Source: a virus
DNA: 64,000 nt
Virus genome (UHGV): UHGV-1370948
Direction: 5' to 3' (one strand)
The position numbers and the translations under genes are program-made. Shown piece by piece: positions 837 through 43,857 of this stretch; position 1 is the first letter of the stretch; each line of letters starts with the position of its first letter. Below the pieces are notes generated by a model. It made no database searches, had not been told where the DNA came from, and was given only the letters and a program-made list of their open reading frames with translations.

Positions 837-2389
837 ATGACCAGCCTGCAACAACGCGCCGAATTACACCGTCAGATATGGGCTATTGCGAACGAGGTTC
901 GCGGTGCCGTTGACGGATGGGACTTTAAACAATACGTCTTAGGGGCGCTGTTTTACCGTTTTATCAGTGAGAACTTCACCAGTTACATCGAAGCCGGTGA
1001 TGACAGTGTTCAGTATGCCGGAATGGCTGACAGTGATATTGGTGATGAGATTAAGGACGATGCGGTCAGAACAAAGGGGTATTTTATCGCTCCAAGCCAG
1101 CTGTTCTGTAATGTGGCGAAGCGTGCCAATACGAATGACCACCTGAATGCTGATTTAAACAGTATCTTTGTTGCGATTGAAAGCTCTGCATCCGGTTATC
1201 CGTCAGAAGCCGCCATTAAGGGACTGTTTGCTGATTTTGATACGACCAGTAACCGGCTGGGCAGTACCGTTAAAGAGAAAAATATCCGGCTTGCTGCGGT
1301 ACTGAAAGGGGTTGAGGGGCTGGCTCTCGGGGATTTTGATGCCCATCAGATTGACCTGTTCGGTGATGCCTATGAGTTTCTGATATCCAATTATGCCGCC
1401 AATGCGGGTAAGTCCGGCGGTGAGTTCTTTACCCCGCAGCATGTCTCTAAGCTGATTGCTCAGCTGGCCATGCACGGACAGACCTCCGTCAATAAAATCT
1501 ATGACCCTGCGGCCGGTTCAGGTTCTCTGCTGCTTCAGGCCAAGAAACACTTTGATAATCACATTATCGAGGACGGTTTCTTTGGTCAGGAGATTAACCA
1601 TACGACCTTTAACCTGGCGCGTATGAATATGTTCCTGCACAACATCAACTACGACAAGTTTGATATCCGGTTAGGGAACACATTACTGGCCCCTGAATTT
1701 AAAGACCAGAAGCCGTTTGATGCGATTGTGTCTAACCCGCCGTACTCCGTGAAATGGGTGGGCAGTGATGACCCGACCCTGATTAACGATGACCGCTTTG
1801 CACCTGCGGGGGTACTGGCCCCGAAATCTAAAGCTGACTTTGCATTCGTACTTCACGCCCTGAATTACCTGTCTGCGAAAGGCCGTGCCGCGATTGTCTG
1901 TTTCCCCGGCATTTTCTACCGTGGCGGAGCTGAGCAGAAAATCCGACAGTATCTGGTTGATAACAACTATGTGGAAACCGTGATATCACTGGCCCCGAAC
2001 CTGTTCTTCGGTACCACCATTGAGGTTAATATTCTGGTGCTGTCAAAGCATAAGGCCGACACCAAAGTACAGTTTATCGATGCCAGCAGTCTGTTTAAGA
2101 AAGAGACCAACAACAACGTTCTTACCGATGCCCATATAGAACAGATTATGGCGGTGTTCGACAGTAAAGCCGATGCAGACTATCTGGCTAAATCTGTTAC
2201 TGCTGAAGCCATTGCAGCTAATGATTACAACCTGTCTGTCAGTAGCTACGTGGAAGCCAAAGATACCCGCGAAATCGTCAACATAGCCGAACTGAATGCT
2301 GAGCTGAAAAAGACCGTCACCAGAATAGACCAGCTTCGTACTGATATTGATGCGATTGTTGCTGAGATTGAAGGTAGCGAGGTACAGGC

Positions 2390-2393
<4 letters not shown>
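837..2393 (+). CDS. hsdM: type I restriction-modification methyltransferase subunit HsdM (EcoR124-like, type IC)
   Basis: 518 aa. Carries the N6-adenine MTase motifs ([15 protein letters not shown]). Overlaps the hsdS start by 4 nt. Confidence 0.92.
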
Positions 2394-3607
<1,214 letters not shown>

Positions 3608-3732
3608 CATAAACGCCCCTGCCAGAGAGAATATCTGGCTGGCAGGGTTGTTTGCATAGCTATAGCCCGATATTCACACTCTAAGGGCATCACCGTTTCA
3701 TTCTTCGCAGCATAACGACAGCAGGGAGCAGC

Positions 3733-6700
3733 ATGACACAGCAGACCAGAACCATCGCCGAATCCAATAACTTCATCGTGCTGGATAAATACGTTACAGA
3801 ATGGGAAGCCGGTGACCGCTACCAGAGTGAGTCGGAGTTAGAGCGCGAGCTGATTCAGGACTTGCGTAATCAGGGCTATGAGTTTGTGCCTGATTTAACC
3901 TCCCAGTCGGCGATGCTGGCGAATGTCAGGGTGCAACTTCAGACACTGAATCAGGTGGTGTTTAACGAAGGCGAATGGCGACGTTTTACCGAGCAGTATC
4001 TGGATAATCCGAGCGATACGATAGTCGATAAGACCCGTAAAATTCACACCGATTACATCTGTGACTTTACCTTCGATGACGGACGACTGGAAAACATCTA
4101 CCTGATTGACAAGAAAAGCCTTGTCCGTAACAAGGTGCAGGTTATCCAGCAGTTTGAGCAAACCGGCAGCCATGCCAATCGCTATGATGTCACGGTGCTG
4201 GTTAACGGCTTACCTCTGGTGCAAATCGAACTGAAAAAGCGGGGCGTAGCGATTCGGGAAGCCTTCAATCAGATACACCGCTACAGCAAAGAGAGCTTTA
4301 ATACCGAGAACTCCCTGTTCAAATATTTGCAGCTCTTCGTGATTTCAAACGGAACCGATACCCGTTACTTTGCCAATACCACAAAGCGGGATAAAAACAG
4401 CTTTGATTTCACCATGAACTGGGCGCGGTCTGATAACACCCTGATTAAAGACCTTAAAGACTTTACCGCCACCTTCTTCCAGAAACACACCTTACTCAAT
4501 GTTCTGTTCAACTACACCGTGTTTGATGTCAGCAACAATCTGCTGATTATGCGTCCCTACCAGATAGCAGCGACGGAGCGGATTTTGTGGAAAATCAACG
4601 GGGCTTATCAGGCAAAAAAATGGAGCTCCAGAGAGGGGGGCGGCTTTATCTGGCACACCACAGGTAGTGGTAAAACCTTAACCAGCTTTAAAGCCGCAAG
4701 GCTGGCAACTGAACTGGATTTCATTGATAAAGTGTTCTTTGTGGTTGACCGTAAAGACCTTGATTACCAGACTATGAAGGAGTATCAGCGTTTCTCACCT
4801 GACAGCGTTAATGGCTCTGACAGCACCGCAGGGCTGAAGCGTAATCTGGAGAAGAATGACAATAAAATCATTGTCACCACAATCCAGAAACTGAACAACC
4901 TGATGAAAGGTGAAGCCGATTTACCGGTCTATCAGCAACAGGTGGTCTTTATCTTCGATGAGTGTCACCGCAGTCAGTTCGGTGAAGCCCAGAAGAACCT
5001 GAAAAAGAAATTCAAACGTTTCTATCAGTTTGGCTTTACCGGTACACCGATATTTGTCGGTAAAAATGCCTTAGGGGATGAAGACACCGCCAGCGTATTC
5101 GGGGCAGAACTACACTCTTACATCATCACCGATGCTATTCGTGATGAAAAGGTGCTCAAGTTTAAAGTCGATTACAACGACGTTCGCCCGCAGTTCAAAG
5201 AGCTGGAAACGGAAACAGACGAAAAGAAACTCAGCGCCGCCGAGAATAAACACGCTTTGCTGCATCCGATGCGGATTAGCGAAGTCACGCATTACATCCT
5301 GAAGAATTTCCGTCAAAAAACACATCGGGCATTCTCTGGTGCTACAGGCTTCAATGCCATGTTTGCCGTCAGCAGTGTGGATGCAGCCAAAGCCTACTAT
5401 GAAGCGTTCAGAATCATACAGCAGTCGGCTGTTGAACAGGATAAGAACTACAAGCCTCTGAAGGTGGCGACCATCTTCTCCTTTGCCGCCAATGAAGAGC
5501 AGGACGCGGTCGGTGATATCAATGATGAAGGGTTTGATGTCACGGCGATGAACAGCAGTGCGCGGGAGTTTCTGGAATCGGCTATCAGTGACTACAATGC
5601 CATGTTTAAGGTTAACCATAGTACTGATGGCAACAACTTCCAGAACTACTATCGTGACCTCTCTGAGCGCGTCAAAAAGCAGGAAGTAGACCTGCTGATT
5701 GTGGTCGGGATGTTCCTGACCGGATTTGATGCCCCGACACTCAATACCCTGTTTGTGGACAAGAACCTGCGCTACCACGGCCTGATGCAGGCATTCTCCC
5801 GCACTAACCGGATTTATAACGCCACCAAAACCTTCGGGAATATTGTCACCTTCCGTGATTTAGAACAGGCCACAGTGGATGCCATTACCCTGTTCGGGAA
5901 GAGCAATACCCGAAGCGTGGTGATGGAAAAAAGTTATGACGAGTACATGGAAGGCTTCACGGACACGCTTACCGGAGAGGCGCGACGTGGCTTCACAGAT
6001 ATCGTGAGCGAGCTGGAGACGCGTTTCCCGAAACCCGCAGACATTGAGTCCGAAAAAGAGAAAAAAGCCTTCGTTAAGCTGTTCGGGGAATATCTTCGGG
6101 TAGAGAACATACTGCAAAACTACGATGAGTTTACCACGCTGAAAGCGCTGCAAACTGTTGACCTCAGTGACCCGGTAGCCGTGGAGGCGTTTAAAGCCGG
6201 GCACTATCTGGATGATGAGGCTTTCGCTGTGCTCCAGACAGTACGCTTACCCGCTGAGCGTAAAATTCAGGACTATCGCTCCAGCTACAACGATATCCGT
6301 GAGTGGCAGCGCCGTGAGCGTGATGCAAACACCAAAGATAAAAATAGCGTTGACTGGGATGATGTGGTCTTTGAGATTGATTTGCTGAAATCGCAGGAGA
6401 TTAACCTCGATTACATCCTGGGGCTGATTTACGAGCATCATCAAAAGAGTACGGATAAAGAGACGCTGAAAGAGGAAGTGAAGCGCTTAATCCGGGCCAG
6501 TCTGGGGAACCGTGCAAAAGAGGGGCTGATGGTCGATTTTATCGAACAGACGAATCTCGATGCCCTGCCGGGCAAAGAGGGCGTCATTGAAGCCTTCTAT
6601 ACCTTTGCACAACAGGCTCAGCAGCGTGAGGCAGAAGCCTTAATCAAAGAGGAAAACCTGAATGAGGACGCCGCCCGGCGCTACATCAGAAATTCTCTCA

Positions 6701-6855
6701 AGCGCGAATATGCCACGGAGAACGGCACTGCGCTGAATGAAACATTACCTAAGCTCAGTCCGCTGAACCCACAATACAGAACCAAAAAGCAGACGGTCTT
6801 TCAGAAGTTCGTGGCCTTTATCGATAAGTTCAAAGGCGTCGGTGGAAGTGTCTGA
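3733..6855 (+). CDS. hsdR: type I restriction endonuclease subunit HsdR (EcoR124-like)
   Basis: 1040 aa. SF2 helicase motifs (TGSGKT, DECH) and strong resemblance to R.EcoR124I as recalled from memory. Confidence 0.92.
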
Positions 6856-7637: not shown

Positions 7638-8162
7638 ATGAAAGAATCAATCACAAAAATTGCAATGGTTTTGGCGCTTGCCTTATCCGGGATAACGCAT
7701 GAATCGTGCGCTAAAGAAACTGTATGCGCTCAGCACATCGTTGCCCCTGGCATCGGCGTATCGTTCAGCGAGGAAGTTATGTCAAACATCAATAAGATGA
7801 ATGAGGTAACTGCAGAAGGTCGTGAACTTTACGCGAGAATTGATGAACTTGCAGAACGCGACTATGAAGCGGCAAAAATGGCTGCTGAGGGGATGCGTGC
7901 AGACATCATCGGAGCCTTGGCTATTGCTGAATTTTTATTCCAGGCACTGCCAGATGTTTCGGTGATCCGTTCATTCCCCAAAGACTCGATGCAGTACAAA
8001 CTTTGCAGAGCGGTCGCAGAAGCACGACACAATGCAAAAAATCTGGACAACCTGTTAAATCAGATACTGAACGTCAGCCCGTATCGTGAGTCAAACATCA
8101 ACCACGATGCACTGACATTACTAGCGGAACGTGGTACAAGGGCTGCGGCTAAATGGCATTGA
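7638..8162 (+). CDS. hypothetical secreted protein
   Basis: N-terminal signal-peptide-like segment MKESITKIAMVLALALSG, then a helical body. Overlaps the downstream toxin-like gene by 10 nt. The ORF could start earlier, at 7602. Confidence 0.35.
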   Translation: MKESITKIAMVLALALSGITHESCAKETVCAQHIVAPGIGVSFSEEVMSNINKMNEVTAEGRELYARIDELAERDYEAAKMAAEGMRADIIGALAIAEFLFQALPDVSVIRSFPKDSMQYKLCRAVAEARHNAKNLDNLLNQILNVSPYRESNINHDALTLLAERGTRAAAKWH

Positions 8163-8569
8163 TTGTCGAATTTAACCCGGATACAAGATCCGAGTTTTTA
8201 GACCCAACTTTCAAAAAGTACCCCGATTTAGAAAGCCAACTCAAAGCCGAATTTATTTATTGTAAGACGAAAAACGTCACAACGAATATTTTCGGCAACG
8301 ATGCCATTTTCACTTTCCCCTCTTACGCAGTAGAGGCACAGTTGTCTCGCGTTCATATCAAGCTGCCGAGCGAAGCGCCGTGGCCCCACGGCATACCCGA
8401 TCGTCAAAAGAAAAGTAACACTTACCTGGTTTACGCCCAGCATATGTGGAACCTTTCGAGCTATTCCATTCTGGCTCTTGTAACTCCAGCGCATGACCTA
8501 ATGAGTGCAGCAAACACTCAACTAATTTCTCGCTTTTCAGCCTACGCAGAGGCTTTTCACTCCCGTTAA
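8153..8569 (+). CDS. YafO-like toxin (ribosome-dependent mRNA interferase family)
   Basis: 138 aa. Blocks IFGNDA, RVHIKL, LVYAQ, ILALVTP and AEAF align with E. coli YafO as recalled from memory. Confidence 0.4.
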   Translation: MALIVEFNPDTRSEFLDPTFKKYPDLESQLKAEFIYCKTKNVTTNIFGNDAIFTFPSYAVEAQLSRVHIKLPSEAPWPHGIPDRQKKSNTYLVYAQHMWNLSSYSILALVTPAHDLMSAANTQLISRFSAYAEAFHSR

Positions 8570-23472: not shown

Positions 23473-23745
23473 ATGAAAGCCTTATTACACGTCCACGCTT
23501 CACTGAACTCTTCGTACTCCCCCTATTCCATTCTGGAATTTCCTGAAGGGACGGACGAAGATCAGCTTCAATCCTTGGCCATTAAATTTCTTCCGTCTCT
23601 TTACGGTGACGAGGAAACCGTTTTCGTTGACGAGGACGGTGTTTGCTGGAACAACGGAGAGTGTTGGTATATCGAGGACTTACGTCTCATTAGTGAAGAA
23701 GACGCGGCGCACTTGACCCGTATTCTGGGCATTTCCACGCTCTAA
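23473..23745 (+). CDS. hypothetical acidic protein
   Basis: 90 aa. Consensus RBS. Its own upstream AACAACTTGTTTA motif. Confidence 0.5.
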   Translation: MKALLHVHASLNSSYSPYSILEFPEGTDEDQLQSLAIKFLPSLYGDEETVFVDEDGVCWNNGECWYIEDLRLISEEDAAHLTRILGISTL

Positions 23746-23779
23746 ATAATAAGTAGACATTTATTTAATGAGGTGTAAT

Positions 23780-23938
23780 ATGCCGCTCCTGTATTTGACC
23801 ACGTCGATTTTTCTGCTCTTTGATAGTGTTTTTGTTGGGAGTTTTCGCAAAGCACTGGCTCCCGTGAATGGTCGGATCATAGACGTACTCGTGGGCGTTT
23901 TTCTGGCCATCGCTTTAGGGAAGTGCTTCGCATCATGA
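23780..23938 (+). CDS. small membrane protein (52 aa)
   Basis: Hand translation MPLLYLTTSIFLLFDSVFVG...LAIALGKCFAS. Its stop overlaps the next gene's ATG. Confidence 0.35.
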   Translation: MPLLYLTTSIFLLFDSVFVGSFRKALAPVNGRIIDVLVGVFLAIALGKCFAS

Positions 23939-24273
23939 AAAAGATTATTGCAGCCTCTATGATCCTCTTCTCATCCGTGGCGTTTGGAGAGAGTGAGACC
24001 GTCATGAAGTGCCAGATGAACATTATGCGTATAAGCAGCGGAAAAATGATCGGAGATCCGCATCAGTTGGCGGAGGCGATTCTGACAGCGGATACGCGAC
24101 AGTTCTATGCTGTCATCGGTGAGCGAATCATCAGTTCACCAATACTTTCAGAGCAAAAAGGTGGTTTAGCCGCATACCAAGCTGGCGCCGCTTACTTTAT
24201 GCGTAAAGACACCTTTGGTGTTATTTATGATGACTTCGGATATGTGTTTGATGAATGTGAAAAGGTTGCGTAA
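23935..24273 (+). CDS. hypothetical secreted protein
   Basis: Signal peptide MKKIIAASMILFSSVAFG. GTG at 23923 is an alternative start. Confidence 0.5.
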   Translation: MKKIIAASMILFSSVAFGESETVMKCQMNIMRISSGKMIGDPHQLAEAILTADTRQFYAVIGERIISSPILSEQKGGLAAYQAGAAYFMRKDTFGVIYDDFGYVFDECEKVA

Positions 24274-24488
24274 TGAACAACATCGCTAACAGCATGGAAA
24301 TTGAAAAAATAAGACCATACTGGCGTGCAAAAGGATTTACTCGCCCGGAAGACTTCTCAACAAGACTGGAGCGTGACGACTGCCAGATTGTGTACCGCTA
24401 TCGTTCGTGGCAGATGATTGAAATCGGCGAGACAAAAGCAAAGGCTAAATCACATCGCCTCTACAACCTTCTGTCTTCAATCACCTGA
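24273..24488 (+). CDS. hypothetical protein
   Basis: 71 aa ORF with an overlapping start. Confidence 0.4.
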   Translation: MNNIANSMEIEKIRPYWRAKGFTRPEDFSTRLERDDCQIVYRYRSWQMIEIGETKAKAKSHRLYNLLSSIT

Positions 24489-24516
24489 CATTAGATAAAT
24501 TGTTAGTGGTTACTAA

Positions 24517-24552
24517 CCCTTTGATATCAACATCTCACAGGTTAGTAACCAC
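24517..24552. promoter_or_regulatory. two 11-bp palindromes GGTTAcTAACC / GGTTAgTAACC, 25 bp apart
   Basis: Direct read, within larger inverted repeats (ttagtggttactaacc ... ggttagtaaccactag). Confidence 0.4.
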
Positions 24553-24597
24553 TAGGGGGCTAAATGGAACCCTCTAAAAATGAATCCTGATCGAAGT

Positions 24598-24852
24598 CAC
24601 CGCTGACGGCATAGTGTACCGCTAACAGCATATCAATTACCGCTGGTAACATACATTGAGCCGCTGACAGCATATCCACAACCGCTGACAGCATACGAAA
24701 TAAAAAAGCCCTCTATTCGAGGGCTTAAATTTGGTGTGAATAAACGATTCCAGACCTTCCTAATCACCGCTGACAGCATATCTAATAGTCAAATCACCGC
24801 TGGCAGCATACCATTTGCCGTTCACAGCATATATTGCACCGCTCAGAGCATA
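24598..24852. repeat. nine 15-bp iterons (consensus ACCGCTGACAGCATA) downstream of repA, in blocks of 5 and 4 split by a hairpin
   Basis: Direct read. Copies at about 24598, 24618, 24639, 24660, 24681, 24765, 24794, 24817 and 24837. Spacing of about 21 bp within each block. Confidence 0.8.
24703..24735 (-). terminator. rho-independent terminator (minus strand) between the iteron blocks
   Basis: gccctcgaatagagggc stem, followed on the minus strand by ttttttatt. Confidence 0.55.
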
Positions 24853-25965
24853 TCAAAGCAACTTCAGACCGTTACTAAGTATCTCAATTAGCTTTATATT
24901 CTCAGGCGTCAAATCTGCAGAAAGTTCAGCTATCTTCTTGATCATGTTTTGTTTTACGACGTCCAGCTCGCCGCTCTCTTGTGGCCCTTCCACTTGCTCT
25001 GCAGGCTTCTCAGGCTTCGACGGTTTCTCTTCACCAATGACTTTAAGTTTCGGGTTGCGTCCATGAATCTGAATAAATACAGAGCGACCACGCTTCACCT
25101 CTGAGTAATCGAGGTAGCCAAGCTCTTTAAGAGACTTCAGACCGTTTCGAATGGTCTGATTTTGGGAGCTGATGCTTGAGCTATTCAGATTCAACCTCGC
25201 ACGCAAACGAGCCAGAGATATTGGCGCCGGCCGCGCCGGAAGACTTTCAATGAAGGTGTATAGCGCCTGGGCGGTTTCTTTACGTGGAAGTTTGTTGATG
25301 ACCTTCAGTTGGAGAAGAACTTTGTGGTCAAACCGGTATAGCTCTGACAGCTTTGGTTCGGCGTGAAATATGATGGTGTTATTTTTCTCATTGTAATCCA
25401 CGCTATTCACCAGATGAACCATGAGCAGAGATATCTTGTTCGAGCCGTCCACGTTCTTCTCTTCGTATGTGCGCTGGAACGAAAGCGTTGTGCGCATTAT
25501 CTTCAGCAGGCTGTTCGTAATCCTGTCTCGCAGCGTCTTGCGTATCTGGGAAGATGGATACCCACAGAACTTGGCAAACTTCGTGATGCTTAGCTCAACG
25601 CGCCCACTGGCCTCCCCATACTCGGCAAGTGATCGGACGACACCAACCCACGTCTTGAAGTCGTGATCCATATCGAGACGTGGACCGGTTATTTTGATAT
25701 CGGAATAACCCTCAGATCTCGCAACCTCCAGTTGCACCAGTTCTTTTGAGGCGTCTATCTGGTTGGAGTTATTTCGTTTACTATTCTTCGTGCCTTTGAG
25801 CGTGGGAACGAACAATCCAAGTCTCATCAACGCAATGGGTTGTACGGTATTGTTGCTGTTAGGGGTGAGGTCGCCTGTGAATAACGCCGGAACACTTTCG
25901 TCGATCGCGTCATCATCATCGATTAACGGTATGTTTTCTTTCTTCTTTTTTTTGCCTGTGGACAT
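24853..25965 (-). CDS. repA: RepA-like iteron-binding replication initiator (putative)
   Basis: 370 aa. N-terminal Lys/Asp-rich stretch. Flanked on both sides by iterons. Not alignable from memory, so the call rests mainly on context. Confidence 0.55.
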   Translation of the reverse strand: MSTGKKKKKENIPLIDDDDAIDESVPALFTGDLTPNSNNTVQPIALMRLGLFVPTLKGTKNSKRNNSNQIDASKELVQLEVARSEGYSDIKITGPRLDMDHDFKTWVGVVRSLAEYGEASGRVELSITKFAKFCGYPSSQIRKTLRDRITNSLLKIMRTTLSFQRTYEEKNVDGSNKISLLMVHLVNSVDYNEKNNTIIFHAEPKLSELYRFDHKVLLQLKVINKLPRKETAQALYTFIESLPARPAPISLARLRARLNLNSSSISSQNQTIRNGLKSLKELGYLDYSEVKRGRSVFIQIHGRNPKLKVIGEEKPSKPEKPAEQVEGPQESGELDVVKQNMIKKIAELSADLTPENIKLIEILSNGLKLL

Positions 25966-25985
25966 GTGGACACCTCATTGCTTAA

Positions 25986-26086
25986 ACCGCTGGTAGCATA
26001 CTTCATTTACCGTTAGCAGCATACACAAAACAGTCCACAGCATATCGCACGCCGCTCGCAGCATATATTTTTCCGCTGACAGCATA
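25986..26086. repeat. five iterons of the same family immediately upstream of repA, overlapping its promoter region
   Basis: accgctggtagcata, accgttagcagcata, (c)agtccacagcata, gccgctcgcagcata, tccgctgacagcata. Confidence 0.75.
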
Positions 26087-26127
26087 CGCCAATGGTCTTT
26101 CAGAGCAGGCGTGGCGCGGGTTGCGAG

Positions 26128-26208
26128 GATCGGGGATCTCTTTTGATCTAATGTATGATCTATATAGGGATCTTATTATTGGGATCTATCCAGTTGATAT
26201 GTGGATAA
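26128..26208. promoter_or_regulatory. origin-like region: six GATC sites within 59 bp (five inside GATCT heptamers) plus a perfect DnaA box TGTGGATAA
   Basis: Direct read. GATC at 26128, 26135, 26145, 26157, 26169 and 26183. DnaA box at 26200-26208. Confidence 0.65.
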
Positions 26209-26281
26209 CTTTTCAAGGCATTTTAGTACGTGAGCCTTGTTTTTGGTTTAATGTGATAAAAAATACAAGGCCAAGCATCAA

Positions 26282-26929
26282 ATGAATATCAAACAGTCGC
26301 GTTACATCAGAAGACTTGAAGATGGGACTTACACCATCAAGTCTGACTCTAAACTGGTTGCTTCCAGGGACATGTGTGAGGTTTGCGGCATCAAAACCGC
26401 CTGCCCGATCTACAAAACCCGGGCATCACTGCTGGAACAAGGTGCGTCATTTGAAATCAACACATGCGCACGATACGTTCCACTCATTTCCTTCAGAAAA
26501 CCTTATCTTGGCTTAAAGGAAGCTTACTTCAACACAATGCGCAGCGGCGTAACCTGGGTCAACCGCGTCAGTGAAAATTCTGTCGTTTGTCTGGTTGGCG
26601 CTGAGAACGGCGAGATAATTCGCTTTGCTCGCGTCGCGAAGGTATTCTCTGGCCCCGTCGACAAAATGCTCAAGATAAACGCCAGGTTCAACCATCTGTG
26701 TCTCGGCGGCAAAACGCAGGATGAGGTAAGAACCGTTATTCAAAAGTCATACGGTCACTTCTTAAAAGAAGACAGCTTGCTGACGGTGATCTACCTGAAA
26801 AGCCTAAAGCACGAGTACGATTGGGAGTATCATACCGAAGAAGAAATCCGAATGATGGAGGACATCACCCCTCCAGATAACGTCGTGAGTCTCGATGAGT
26901 TAAGACGCAGGTTCGAAGAGAAGATTTAA
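26282..26929 (+). CDS. hypothetical protein with a CxxC...C motif
   Basis: 215 aa ORF next to the origin. Confidence 0.5.
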   Translation: MNIKQSRYIRRLEDGTYTIKSDSKLVASRDMCEVCGIKTACPIYKTRASLLEQGASFEINTCARYVPLISFRKPYLGLKEAYFNTMRSGVTWVNRVSENSVVCLVGAENGEIIRFARVAKVFSGPVDKMLKINARFNHLCLGGKTQDEVRTVIQKSYGHFLKEDSLLTVIYLKSLKHEYDWEYHTEEEIRMMEDITPPDNVVSLDELRRRFEEKI

Positions 26930-27164
26930 CCGCGCATATTCCTCCCCCTCCGCTATTGTGAGGGGTTTTCTCGCCCAACCCAAACATTCCCCCAACTTAA
27001 TCACAAAACCTCACTGAGAGCGTCTGGTGGCCTCGCTCCTTCCTTTATGATGAAAAATAGATAAGCATTTACTTATCTAATGGTGTTTAATATGCACCTG
27101 ATGAAGTCGCTTGGTGGCCTGTTAACCCACTCTATCATCGAATAAAACAACAACAGGAAAACAC

Positions 27165-41939: not shown

Positions 41940-43025
41940 ATGAAAGAGCAAATAGACCTAGCAATAAAAGAAGATAAGATTTTTTTTCTTGGTAAAAAAT
42001 TACAAGATGATTGGTATCAGGCTTTTGCTGAGTGGTCTGATATAGCCCGGAAGGATAATAATCCTGAAGCATATTTCAATATGGCGTATTGCTATTTAAC
42101 AAGCAATGGAACCAAAAAAAATATAGAGAAGGCTATTGAATATTATGAACTTGCTGGCTCATTAGGTTTAAATGAAGCCTACACTCACGCTTACAAAGCA
42201 AGAGCGGAATATATTTTCAAGGATGACATTAATGATTATATTTCTTATCTAGAATCTTTGAAAGAAAAGGGTGTTTGGAGTCATGACCCTGACGAAAAAG
42301 GGTGCAGAACTTATTTTTCTTGTGAGCACGAAGCATTGCAATTTCAGGATGTTATGATACAACTCTCACTGAGATCATCGCCTGGCGATAGAGCGGCAAA
42401 AGCTAAAGAGCTGCGGGGAAAATATAAGGCCCACTACATAAATTTGGTTTTAGATCATTTCATTGCAATATCTGAAGTTTCAGCTGAAGTGGAGTACAGA
42501 GAATCAAAAATTAGCCACCTAGAACATAAAGGAAGAATACATAAAGGCAATTCATTGTTAAGCACAAGATATTCATATAAGGTTGAATATTTGGCTAAGC
42601 TAAAAAATAATGGCAAGGGAGATGCACATTTTGATTTTACATTCCGCGCTGCGAATATGGCAGAGATGAAGGCAGCACATGACAAAGACCCACTCAATGG
42701 GTTGAACAAGCTGTATACAAAAATCTCCAATATAATGTTAAAGCCAGGGGAGCAGGTAGAGAAAATATTGGTAACTGATTTGCCAGTAAAAAACCTGAGT
42801 TCAAACTGCGTAAACTTTTCTTATGATTTTAAAAGAAATTTTGAGAGGTATTACGTGTCAAGTAGTTATAGAGGCTATATCACCTATGATTTTGACATCA
42901 AACCTGGGAGTATTTCAGTTGTCAGAAAGGCAAGTGAAACTGAAAAATATAAGATAAAGCAATTTATAGCTTATGCGGTAGTGATCTTGGGTATCTATCT
43001 CTACATAAAGCACTTATTGGGTTGA
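41940..43025 (+). CDS. Sel1/TPR-like repeat protein with a C-terminal transmembrane anchor
   Basis: Sel1-like repeat NNPEAYFNMAYCYLTSNGTKKNIEKAIEYYELAGSLGLNEA. C-terminal hydrophobic IAYAVVILGIYLYI. Lies in the AT-rich block. Confidence 0.55.
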   Translation: MKEQIDLAIKEDKIFFLGKKLQDDWYQAFAEWSDIARKDNNPEAYFNMAYCYLTSNGTKKNIEKAIEYYELAGSLGLNEAYTHAYKARAEYIFKDDINDYISYLESLKEKGVWSHDPDEKGCRTYFSCEHEALQFQDVMIQLSLRSSPGDRAAKAKELRGKYKAHYINLVLDHFIAISEVSAEVEYRESKISHLEHKGRIHKGNSLLSTRYSYKVEYLAKLKNNGKGDAHFDFTFRAANMAEMKAAHDKDPLNGLNKLYTKISNIMLKPGEQVEKILVTDLPVKNLSSNCVNFSYDFKRNFERYYVSSSYRGYITYDFDIKPGSISVVRKASETEKYKIKQFIAYAVVILGIYLYIKHLLG

Positions 43026-43224: not shown

Positions 43225-43857
43225 GTGAACGGTTCTCAGAAAATAAAAAACAGAGAGCGCGATGGCAATCTACGCGACCTCTGGCGAACGCCTCTGTGGT
43301 TGTTTCATGCTTTCGAAGTTTATCTCGGCATGAAGTTCCAGGTCGACGTCGCGTGCAACAAAGACAATGCGATCCTGCCTGACTTTATCGGCGTAGAACG
43401 TGACGCGCTAAAGTCCAGCTGGTGCGAAGCCGGTACAATCGCATTCCTCAACCCGCCCTACTCCAAAATCAAACCATGGATAGACGCCGCGGCGCGTGAA
43501 CAGGTCAATGGTGTTACAACTGTCATGCTGGTTCCTCAGTCCCTCGACACTCAGTGGTATCTGGACGTTAAGCGCAGCGCGAATCAGACCGTACTTATTG
43601 TTGGCGGTCGCGTCGCTTTTATGGAGCCAGATACAACGCTGGGATTGGTTGAAGTTCGCGAGAATACTGGCGGTAGCATGTTGCTGGTCTTCCGGGGCTT
43701 CTATGGCGCTGCTGGACACCAGACGACGGAGATCGACATCGGCGTGATGAAATTGTTGGGTGGCTATGATCCACTAACGGCGAAACGGAAGCCACGTAAG
43801 AAGCCTGTTAAGAAAGCATCTCCACCCCTTAATAAAAAGACTTTAAAAGCGCTTTAA
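43225..43857 (+). CDS. phage Dam-family DNA N6-adenine methyltransferase
   Basis: WRTPLWLF...NPPYS...VMLVPQS pattern of the phage N6A-MTase (Dam) family. Lys-rich C-terminal tail. Confidence 0.8.
   Translation: MNGSQKIKNRERDGNLRDLWRTPLWLFHAFEVYLGMKFQVDVACNKDNAILPDFIGVERDALKSSWCEAGTIAFLNPPYSKIKPWIDAAAREQVNGVTTVMLVPQSLDTQWYLDVKRSANQTVLIVGGRVAFMEPDTTLGLVEVRENTGGSMLLVFRGFYGAAGHQTTEIDIGVMKLLGGYDPLTAKRKPRKKPVKKASPPLNKKTLKAL

Follow-up and report, generated by a model that had tools for sequence, protein, structure and literature searches.

A sister lineage of the P1/RepFIB replicon family on an SSU5-like Klebsiella phage-plasmid

The 64,000-nucleotide stretch of viral DNA analysed here (UHGV virus genome UHGV-1370948; hereafter the window) carries a plasmid replicon that represents a sister lineage, typed as rep_cluster_2469, within the well-known P1/RepFIB family. 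The locus comprises the initiator gene repA, five short repeats (iterons) upstream and nine downstream of it, a cluster of GATC sites and a DnaA box. It is very probably the plasmid-maintenance replicon of a common SSU5-like Klebsiella phage-plasmid of about 110 kb. In all likelihood, RepA and DnaA would initiate replication at the five-iteron origin, methylated GATC heptamers would license or sequester it, and copy number would be held in check by the nine iterons downstream of repA. A first-pass annotation, made from the letters of the window, had proposed a P1-type replicon whose layout mirrors that of phage P1. This proposal was correct but understated: since RepA is 48% identical to P1 RepA, the parts follow each other in the same order and the origin DNA aligns, the resemblance is, as judged from sequence, one of homology and common descent. 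All elements were found where they had been placed, and only the start of the region, which lies at 24599, had been set one base early (24598). In the literature accessible to the search, no study dissecting this replicon was found.

RepA, iterons and origin DNA

The protein encoded by repA aligns with P1 RepA across residues 20-284 of the 286 residues of the latter (E 6e-89, BLASTP), and a tblastn search with RepA gave 45.5% identity to P1 and P7 (E 2e-63). Identity is about 51-53% to the RepFIB RepA proteins of pO157 and F-type plasmids (the F plasmid sequence used was NC_002483), about 47-48% to RepA of Salmonella phage SSU5 and 77-80% to RepA proteins of the pKPHS1 type, with 79% for pKPHS1 (L013) itself. 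The latter type includes p4727 and PhiR41_1, the pair of relatives labelled L007 and L008. RepA of one relative, in which the DNA of the locus has diverged by 1.6%, is identical at 367 of 370 positions. Residues 120-239 match the Pfam family Rep3_N (PF01051) with 37.2 bits against a cutoff of 22.4 (E 4.7e-9), and none of the NCBIfam models matches RepA. The Pfam match to the first winged-helix domain (WH1) and the homology to P1 RepA suggest a fold with two winged helices (WH1 and WH2); further support for this fold is said to come from work on P1 RepA (Sharma et al. 2004), going by its title.

The repeats that flank repA are not a product of chance. When the whole window was scanned for ACCGCTGACAGCATA with at most 3 mismatches, 18 matches were found, whereas 1.5 were expected, and none of 100 shuffled controls reached this number. 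Thirteen of the 18 matches sit in two blocks flanking the open reading frame (ORF) 24853-25965, all of them on the plus strand, and a fourteenth repeat at 26030-26044, which has 4 mismatches, nevertheless stands in exact 21-bp register between its neighbours. The count of five upstream and nine downstream iterons given in the first-pass annotation thus holds, and so does its division of the downstream array into blocks of five and four by a repA terminator, the hairpin of which runs from 24726 to 24706. The iterons are 15 bp long and mostly spaced at 21 bp, with C2, G4 and CATA12-15 as invariant positions throughout the 14 copies. The last proximal iteron abuts the repA stop codon, as does the annotated first incA iteron of P1.

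Conservation of the arrays extends to the relatives. A 98.4%-identical relative (L002) retains all 14 iterons and differs at variable iteron positions only. The five origin iterons have identical coordinates in the window and in L007 and L008, and their geometry is also identical in pKPHS1. The window, p4727, PhiR41_1, pKPHS1 and P1 each have nine copies downstream of repA, and the distal block of five is also present in pKPHS1 and p4727. In a position-by-position comparison of three replicons with RepA identities of 77-80%, identity was 79-92% in the iterons versus 54-69% in the spacers between them, a difference which points to constraint on the iterons. Each of seven replicons has one common motif in its upstream and downstream arrays, and this motif shifts between replicons in step with the divergence of RepA. 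Read in the sense of repA, it is TATGCTGTCAGCGGT in the window, p4727, PhiR41_1 and pKPHS1, TCCACTGTAGTGAGT in SSU5, TAAGCTGTAGTCAGT in RepFIB, TGTGCTGGAGGGAAA in P1 and TGCGCTGGAGGGAAA in Cronobacter JK004; a CTG core in the same register is common to all motifs compared.

On the far side of the upstream iterons lies the origin core. Its six GATC sites within 59 bp, five of them as GATCT, and the perfect DnaA box starting at 26200 are as described in the first pass. Read in the sense of repA, the GATC sites form five AGATC(C/A) heptamers and one CGATCC. No other part of the window is as rich in GATC, the next densest group having 3 sites per 60 bp. The sites occupy identical positions in L007 and L008, the cluster is 78-84% identical among the three replicons compared above, and in an alignment with P1 oriR it falls on the five Dam sites annotated there. 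The A+T content is 64% over the stretch that runs from the DnaA box to the end of the cluster, and this cluster is presumed to be the target of Dam and SeqA as well as the region of DNA unwinding. DnaA box, AGATCC heptamers and G+C-rich spacer can be aligned across the window, P1, Cronobacter JK004, RepFIB and SSU5; the window reads TTATCCACA-TATCAACTGGATAGATCCCAATAAT...AGATCCCCGATCC...CCGCGCCACGCCTG and P1 reads TTATCCACATTATCCACTGGATAGATCCAATAAT...AGATCCCTGATCG...CCGCGCCACGTCTGG. Because similarity falls sharply beyond the DnaA box, to 29-43% among the same three replicons, the outer edge of the replicon was placed at 26192-26208.

Table 1. Coordinates of the replicon parts and of the methyltransferase gene in the window
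Feature	Position	Strand	Description
Distal control iterons, five (incA-like)	24599-24695	-	Starts 24599, 24618, 24639, 24660, 24681; TATGCTGTCAGCGGT in repA sense
Intrinsic terminator for repA transcription (predicted)	24706-24726	-	Hairpin of 8 pairs, then TTTTTTATTT
Proximal control iterons, four	24766-24852	-	Starts 24766, 24796, 24817, 24838
repA, 370 amino acids	24853-25965	-	Initiator of the P1 RepA / RepFIB RepA family; Rep3_N WH1 domain; predicted iteron binder
Two overlapping weak DnaA-box-like motifs (TGTCCACA)	25957-25973	-	ATGTCCACA and GTGTCCACA; 2 mismatches each; straddle the repA start codon
Origin iterons, five (incC-like)	25986-26086	-	Starts 25986, 26009, 26030, 26051, 26072; spacing 23, 21, 21, 21 bp
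G+C-rich spacer (64% G+C)	26087-26127		Holds CCGCGCCACGCCTG in repA sense; conserved in P1 oriR and close relatives
GATC cluster, six sites	26128-26186		Starts 26128, 26135, 26145, 26157, 26169, 26183; five as GATCT
Degenerate second DnaA box	26192-26200	-	ATATCAACT
DnaA box, perfect	26200-26208	-	TGTGGATAA; TTATCCACA on the minus strand
Phage-type N6-adenine methyltransferase	43225-43857	+	Pfam Dam PF05869, E 4.8e-34; TIGR01712

Further DnaA-box-like sequences were noted within the replicon. The relaxed consensus TTATNCACA has three matches in the 64-kb window (24735, 25876 and 26200), all of which lie within the replicon and in the same orientation; neither L007 nor L008 conserves the TTATTCACA boxes at 24735 and 25876, for which no role is claimed. 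At the place of the two weak motifs that straddle the repA start codon, better boxes are found in relatives, such as GTATCCACA in L007, and a C-to-T change at 25971 turns the motif into a box with a single mismatch in L002. In P1 and Cronobacter JK004, CTATCCACA and TTATCCACA precede repA by about 20 nt.

Two iteron-like sites were noted outside the arrays. The orphan site ACCGATGACAGCATA (24106-24120, minus strand) lies about 480 bp beyond the downstream array, inverted and inside ORF 23923-24273. It has one mismatch and keeps all invariant positions, and the chance expectation for such a match is estimated at about 0.005 per window. Relatives at 98-100% identity retain the site, and L007 and L008 (77%) lack it; whether it belongs to the replicon as a fifteenth iteron is uncertain. 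A site at 24282-24296, which has 3 mismatches and breaks two invariant positions, was judged to be a chance match.

The repA gene itself shows some additional features. It starts with ATG, preceded by GAGG. The C-terminal tail of RepA (about 60 amino acids, residues ~310-370, encoded by 24853-25042) consists of a linker rich in Pro, Glu and Lys and, behind it, two predicted helices; the tail is missing from P1 RepA and partly common to the RepA proteins of RepFIB and SSU5. At the 5' end of the gene, a homopolymer run at 25942-25955 (T8 on the plus strand), which encodes the lysines of MSTGKKKKKE, is a potential hotspot for slippage or sequencing errors. The 'replication protein A' coding sequence deposited for pKPHS1 (L013 201-1418, 405 amino acids) begins inside the origin iterons and, judged by the conserved ATG at which the window gene starts, seems to be overlong by about 40 codons.

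Relationship to P1, RepFIB and other phage-plasmid replicons

In the annotated P1 record, the order of parts is a DnaA site, Dam sites 5 to 1, incC iterons 14-10 with PrepA inside, repA, and incA iterons 9-1, which start from the last base of repA. The window follows the P1/P7 R replicon in having DnaA box sequence, five AGATCC-type heptamers and a further GATC, a spacer rich in G+C that contains CCGCGCCACG(C/T)CTGG, five iterons, repA, and nine iterons that start from the stop codon. The five upstream iterons are phased at 21-22 bp in P1 and at 21-23 bp in the window, and in both cases the carrier is a phage-plasmid. The two replicons differ in the iteron, which reads TATGCTGTCAGCGGT in the window and GATGTGTGCTGGAGGGAAA in P1; the view of the first-pass annotation that the iteron sequences are unrelated is only roughly true, since a TGCTG core is common to both in the same register, and the window iteron matches that of RepFIB at 10-11 of 15 bases. 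Moreover, the downstream array of the window is split 4+5 by the terminator, and its RepA has about 30 extra residues at the N-terminus and about 60 at the C-terminus.

Several observations weigh against the reading proposed here. In the window, all nine control iterons are direct repeats; of those in P1, 3 are direct and 6 inverted. Furthermore, no parAB-parS adjoins the array, where the neighbouring gene is a 71-amino-acid ORF and not parA. The window has only one perfect DnaA box, while P1 has a tandem pair, the second member of which is degenerate here; one DnaA box is said to suffice for P1. The predicted fold of RepA found no further backing, as sequence and profile searches of the PDB with RepA gave no meaningful match, hhalign detected only weak similarity between the RepA family profile and RepE of F (E 0.011, probability 3.8%), and a single-sequence AlphaFold model of RepA was unusable (mean predicted local distance difference test score, pLDDT, 38.9). 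The first pass had also stated that the upstream iterons overlap the repA promoter, which could not be confirmed: a scan for sigma-70 consensus promoters in and near the iterons yielded no sites, and a relaxed scan, which recovered PrepA of P1 at 8 of 12 matches, gave nothing comparable or conserved in the window, L007 and L008. The repA promoter is presumed, from the P1 arrangement, to lie within the origin iterons, and since no sigma-70 consensus promoter could be placed, autoregulation by promoter occlusion is proposed purely by analogy with P1. Because the iteron sequence differs, the nine copies are direct and parAB-parS is not adjacent, the window replicon is classed as a member of the family and not as a P1/IncY replicon. 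The differences from P1 are variations within the family and not a new design.

Among the classical systems, the RepFIB replicons of P307, F, pColV-K30 (REPI) and pO157 have the closest RepA. They possess the same DnaA box, a cluster of 5-6 GATC sites at a spacing of 11-13 bp, iterons upstream (BCDD'D'') and downstream (E-K) of repA, and the C-terminal tail of RepA. RepFIB differs in its iteron specificity, in the mixed orientation and number (about 6-7) of its downstream iterons, and in its carriers, which are conjugative plasmids, whereas the carrier of the window replicon is a phage-plasmid. In addition, repA of F RepFIB starts with CTG (PMC11983097), while the window gene uses ATG.

The nearest relatives form the IncFIB(pKPHS1) group (pKPHS1, p4727 and PhiR41_1), which shares with the window the iteron consensus, an origin geometry identical to the base, the 5+9 layout and syntenic neighbours. 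The plasmid pKPHS1, which gives the group its name, is typed as IncFIB by MOB-suite, in contrast to the record matching the window, which is typed as rep_cluster_2469. The two differ in that they have separate RepA lineages, that the spacers and the gap within the downstream array have diverged, and that the terminator in this gap is specific to the window lineage. Since one iteron consensus is kept despite a RepA identity of only 79%, plasmids of the window and pKPHS1 lineages are predicted to be cross-incompatible and may exclude each other. Salmonella phage SSU5 belongs to the same phage-plasmid group and has a syntenic repA locus and an alignable origin; it differs in its iteron and in having about 14 downstream iterons of mixed orientation. 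The plasmids pHCM2 and pMT1 are placed with the SSU5 replicon.

Proposed initiation and copy-number control

From the homology to P1 and RepFIB, we infer how the replicon might work. RepA monomers would bind the five phased origin iterons, and host DnaA would bind the perfect DnaA box. Together, RepA and DnaA would open the adjacent A+T-rich region of GATC heptamers, where the host replisome would be loaded. The heptamers would have to be methylated at adenine for the origin to fire, and just after replication, when they are hemimethylated, they would be sequestered by SeqA. By occupying the origin iterons, RepA would also repress transcription of its own gene. RepA would be titrated by the nine iterons downstream, which would also pair with the origin iterons via RepA (handcuffing), and titration and handcuffing would keep the copy number low and set incompatibility. 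Methylation dependence has reportedly been described for P1 and for the RepFIB-type replicon REPI, going by the titles of the respective papers (Abeles & Austin 1987; Abeles et al. 1993; Gammie & Crosa 1991).

For RepFIB, displacement of the replicon was obtained with the downstream iteron block by itself but not with the upstream block, which the authors interpreted as handcuffing between the arrays (PMC11983097). It could be argued that the nine-repeat array of the window has a different function and serves as a centromere, as a barrier to replication forks or transcription, or is neutral duplicated DNA. A centromere has to be somewhere on an element whose replicon has no adjacent partition operon, and the array is interrupted by a terminator. 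However, the motif of the array is the same as that of the origin iterons and co-varies with RepA, the count of nine copies has been kept from the window to P1, and the equivalent blocks, incA of P1 and E-K of RepFIB, are incompatibility and control determinants (PMC11983097 for RepFIB). A role outside copy control is thus highly improbable, and restraint of copy number is the favoured function of the downstream iterons. Control by an antisense RNA, as in replicons of the IncFII type, was also considered and rejected, because a scan of 23500-27000 against Rfam contained no RNA regulator and gave only sub-threshold matches, which were caused by the terminator hairpin.

The second point of debate is the source of adenine methylation. 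The first pass had drawn attention to a Dam-family methylase encoded by the element itself, and the gene is indeed there (Table 1). If this enzyme rather than host Dam methylated the origin heptamers, licensing would be self-contained, for instance in dam-deficient hosts, or might be coupled to phage gene expression. The presence of an ORF matching PF05869 and TIGR01712 and the conserved position of the GATC cluster across the lineage would fit such a scenario. On the other hand, enterobacterial hosts carry their own Dam, the methylase gene is located 17 kb from the origin among phage nucleotide-metabolism genes, and its specificity for GATC is putative and does not derive from this analysis. 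The same GATC cluster is found on RepFIB plasmids, which argues that host Dam suffices, although those plasmids were not checked for a comparable methylase. Control of the origin by the element's own methylase is for these reasons speculative and considered unlikely.

Just upstream of the methylase gene lies a 361-amino-acid ORF with Sel1 repeats (41940-43025). In the otherwise nearly identical plasmid record NZ_CP097685.1, the methylase is found about 1.28 kb earlier in corresponding coordinates, and the Sel1-repeat ORF may be an insertion relative to this record, as judged from the coordinates.

The downstream array differs from those of the relatives by its terminator, which occupies the 85-bp gap between the four repA-proximal and the five distal iterons. 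The hairpin of 8 pairs is followed by TTTTTTATTT and folds with -15.3 kcal/mol (z = -3.4), and it is therefore regarded as the terminator of repA transcription, which would end after four iterons. No such hairpin is found in the matching gap of p4727 and PhiR41_1, so that the terminator is lineage-specific. Between the stop codon of ORF 24273-24488 and the outermost iteron, a perfect 15-bp inverted repeat, TAGTGGTTACTAACC ... GGTTAGTAACCACTA, was detected (24504-24518 and 24540-24554, with a spacer of 21 nt). Its RNA fold reaches -25.3 kcal/mol (z = -5) with no T-run behind it, and it may be bound by a protein or act as an unusual terminator. The motif GTGGTTACTAAC of this region recurs by or in the downstream arrays of L007 (2954-2967 and 2994-3005) and L008 (2754-2765) and is found nowhere else in the window.

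It is tempting to speculate that these elements add a layer of regulation that P1 and RepFIB lack. The terminator would leave only the four proximal iterons in the repA transcript and insulate the five distal ones, and the orphan iteron at 24106-24120, the conserved GTGGTTACTAAC palindrome at 24504-24554 and possibly the action of the element's own methylase on the origin heptamers would contribute, for example by coupling copy number to the lysis-lysogeny state. Such a layer is considered unlikely.

The carrier element and its significance

The 2.2-kb locus is 100% identical to a stretch of the Klebsiella pneumoniae plasmid NZ_CP097685.1, which is circular, 111.9 kb in size, non-mobilizable and typed by MOB-suite as rep_cluster_2469. 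A further 23 plasmids of 108-116 kb match the locus at 97.5-100%, and DNA-level matches were found in 170 PLSDB records. The records that host it are circular plasmids in the range of 108-116 kb. The gene content of the carrier is that of an SSU5-like phage-plasmid, a group to which plasmid-typing tools already assign IncFIB. The identical RepA protein is named "RepB family plasmid replication initiator protein" at NCBI, and the exact protein together with its 90% cluster occurs on hundreds of contigs.

Another explanation for the locus would be that it is a relic or an origin of the lytic phase and that the element is maintained by a different replicon. Phage-type replication proteins are encoded on the element, and the annotation of the relative pKPHS1 includes DNA polymerase III-like and helicase genes. 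Moreover, the PLSDB gene table does not list repA for three RefSeq records that are 100% identical to the locus; this table, however, is stated to be incomplete. The repA gene is intact and its product nearly unchanged in the 1.6%-divergent locus, the iterons are, by the comparison with their spacers, under constraint, and for the two records examined PLSDB and MOB-suite list this replicon type alone. In P1, the homologous locus is the origin of the plasmid state, and the lytic origin, oriL, is separate. That the window locus is a relic or lytic origin is hence very hard to credit, and plasmid maintenance is taken to be its role.

According to the annotation of the identical record, the element also encodes a complete type I restriction-modification system (M, S and R subunits; window 868-6832) as well as a Phd/YefM antitoxin and a YafO toxin (462-713 and 8130-8546).

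Taken together, the replicon described here very probably maintains a very common class of phage-plasmids of about 110 kb in Klebsiella, Escherichia and Cronobacter. The map of its parts at base level reveals no new biology; it serves annotation, incompatibility and typing schemes, and the design of curing cassettes, for which the work on RepFIB singles out the downstream iteron block, by itself, as the part that is effective. The P1/RepFIB model is thereby extended to one more lineage.

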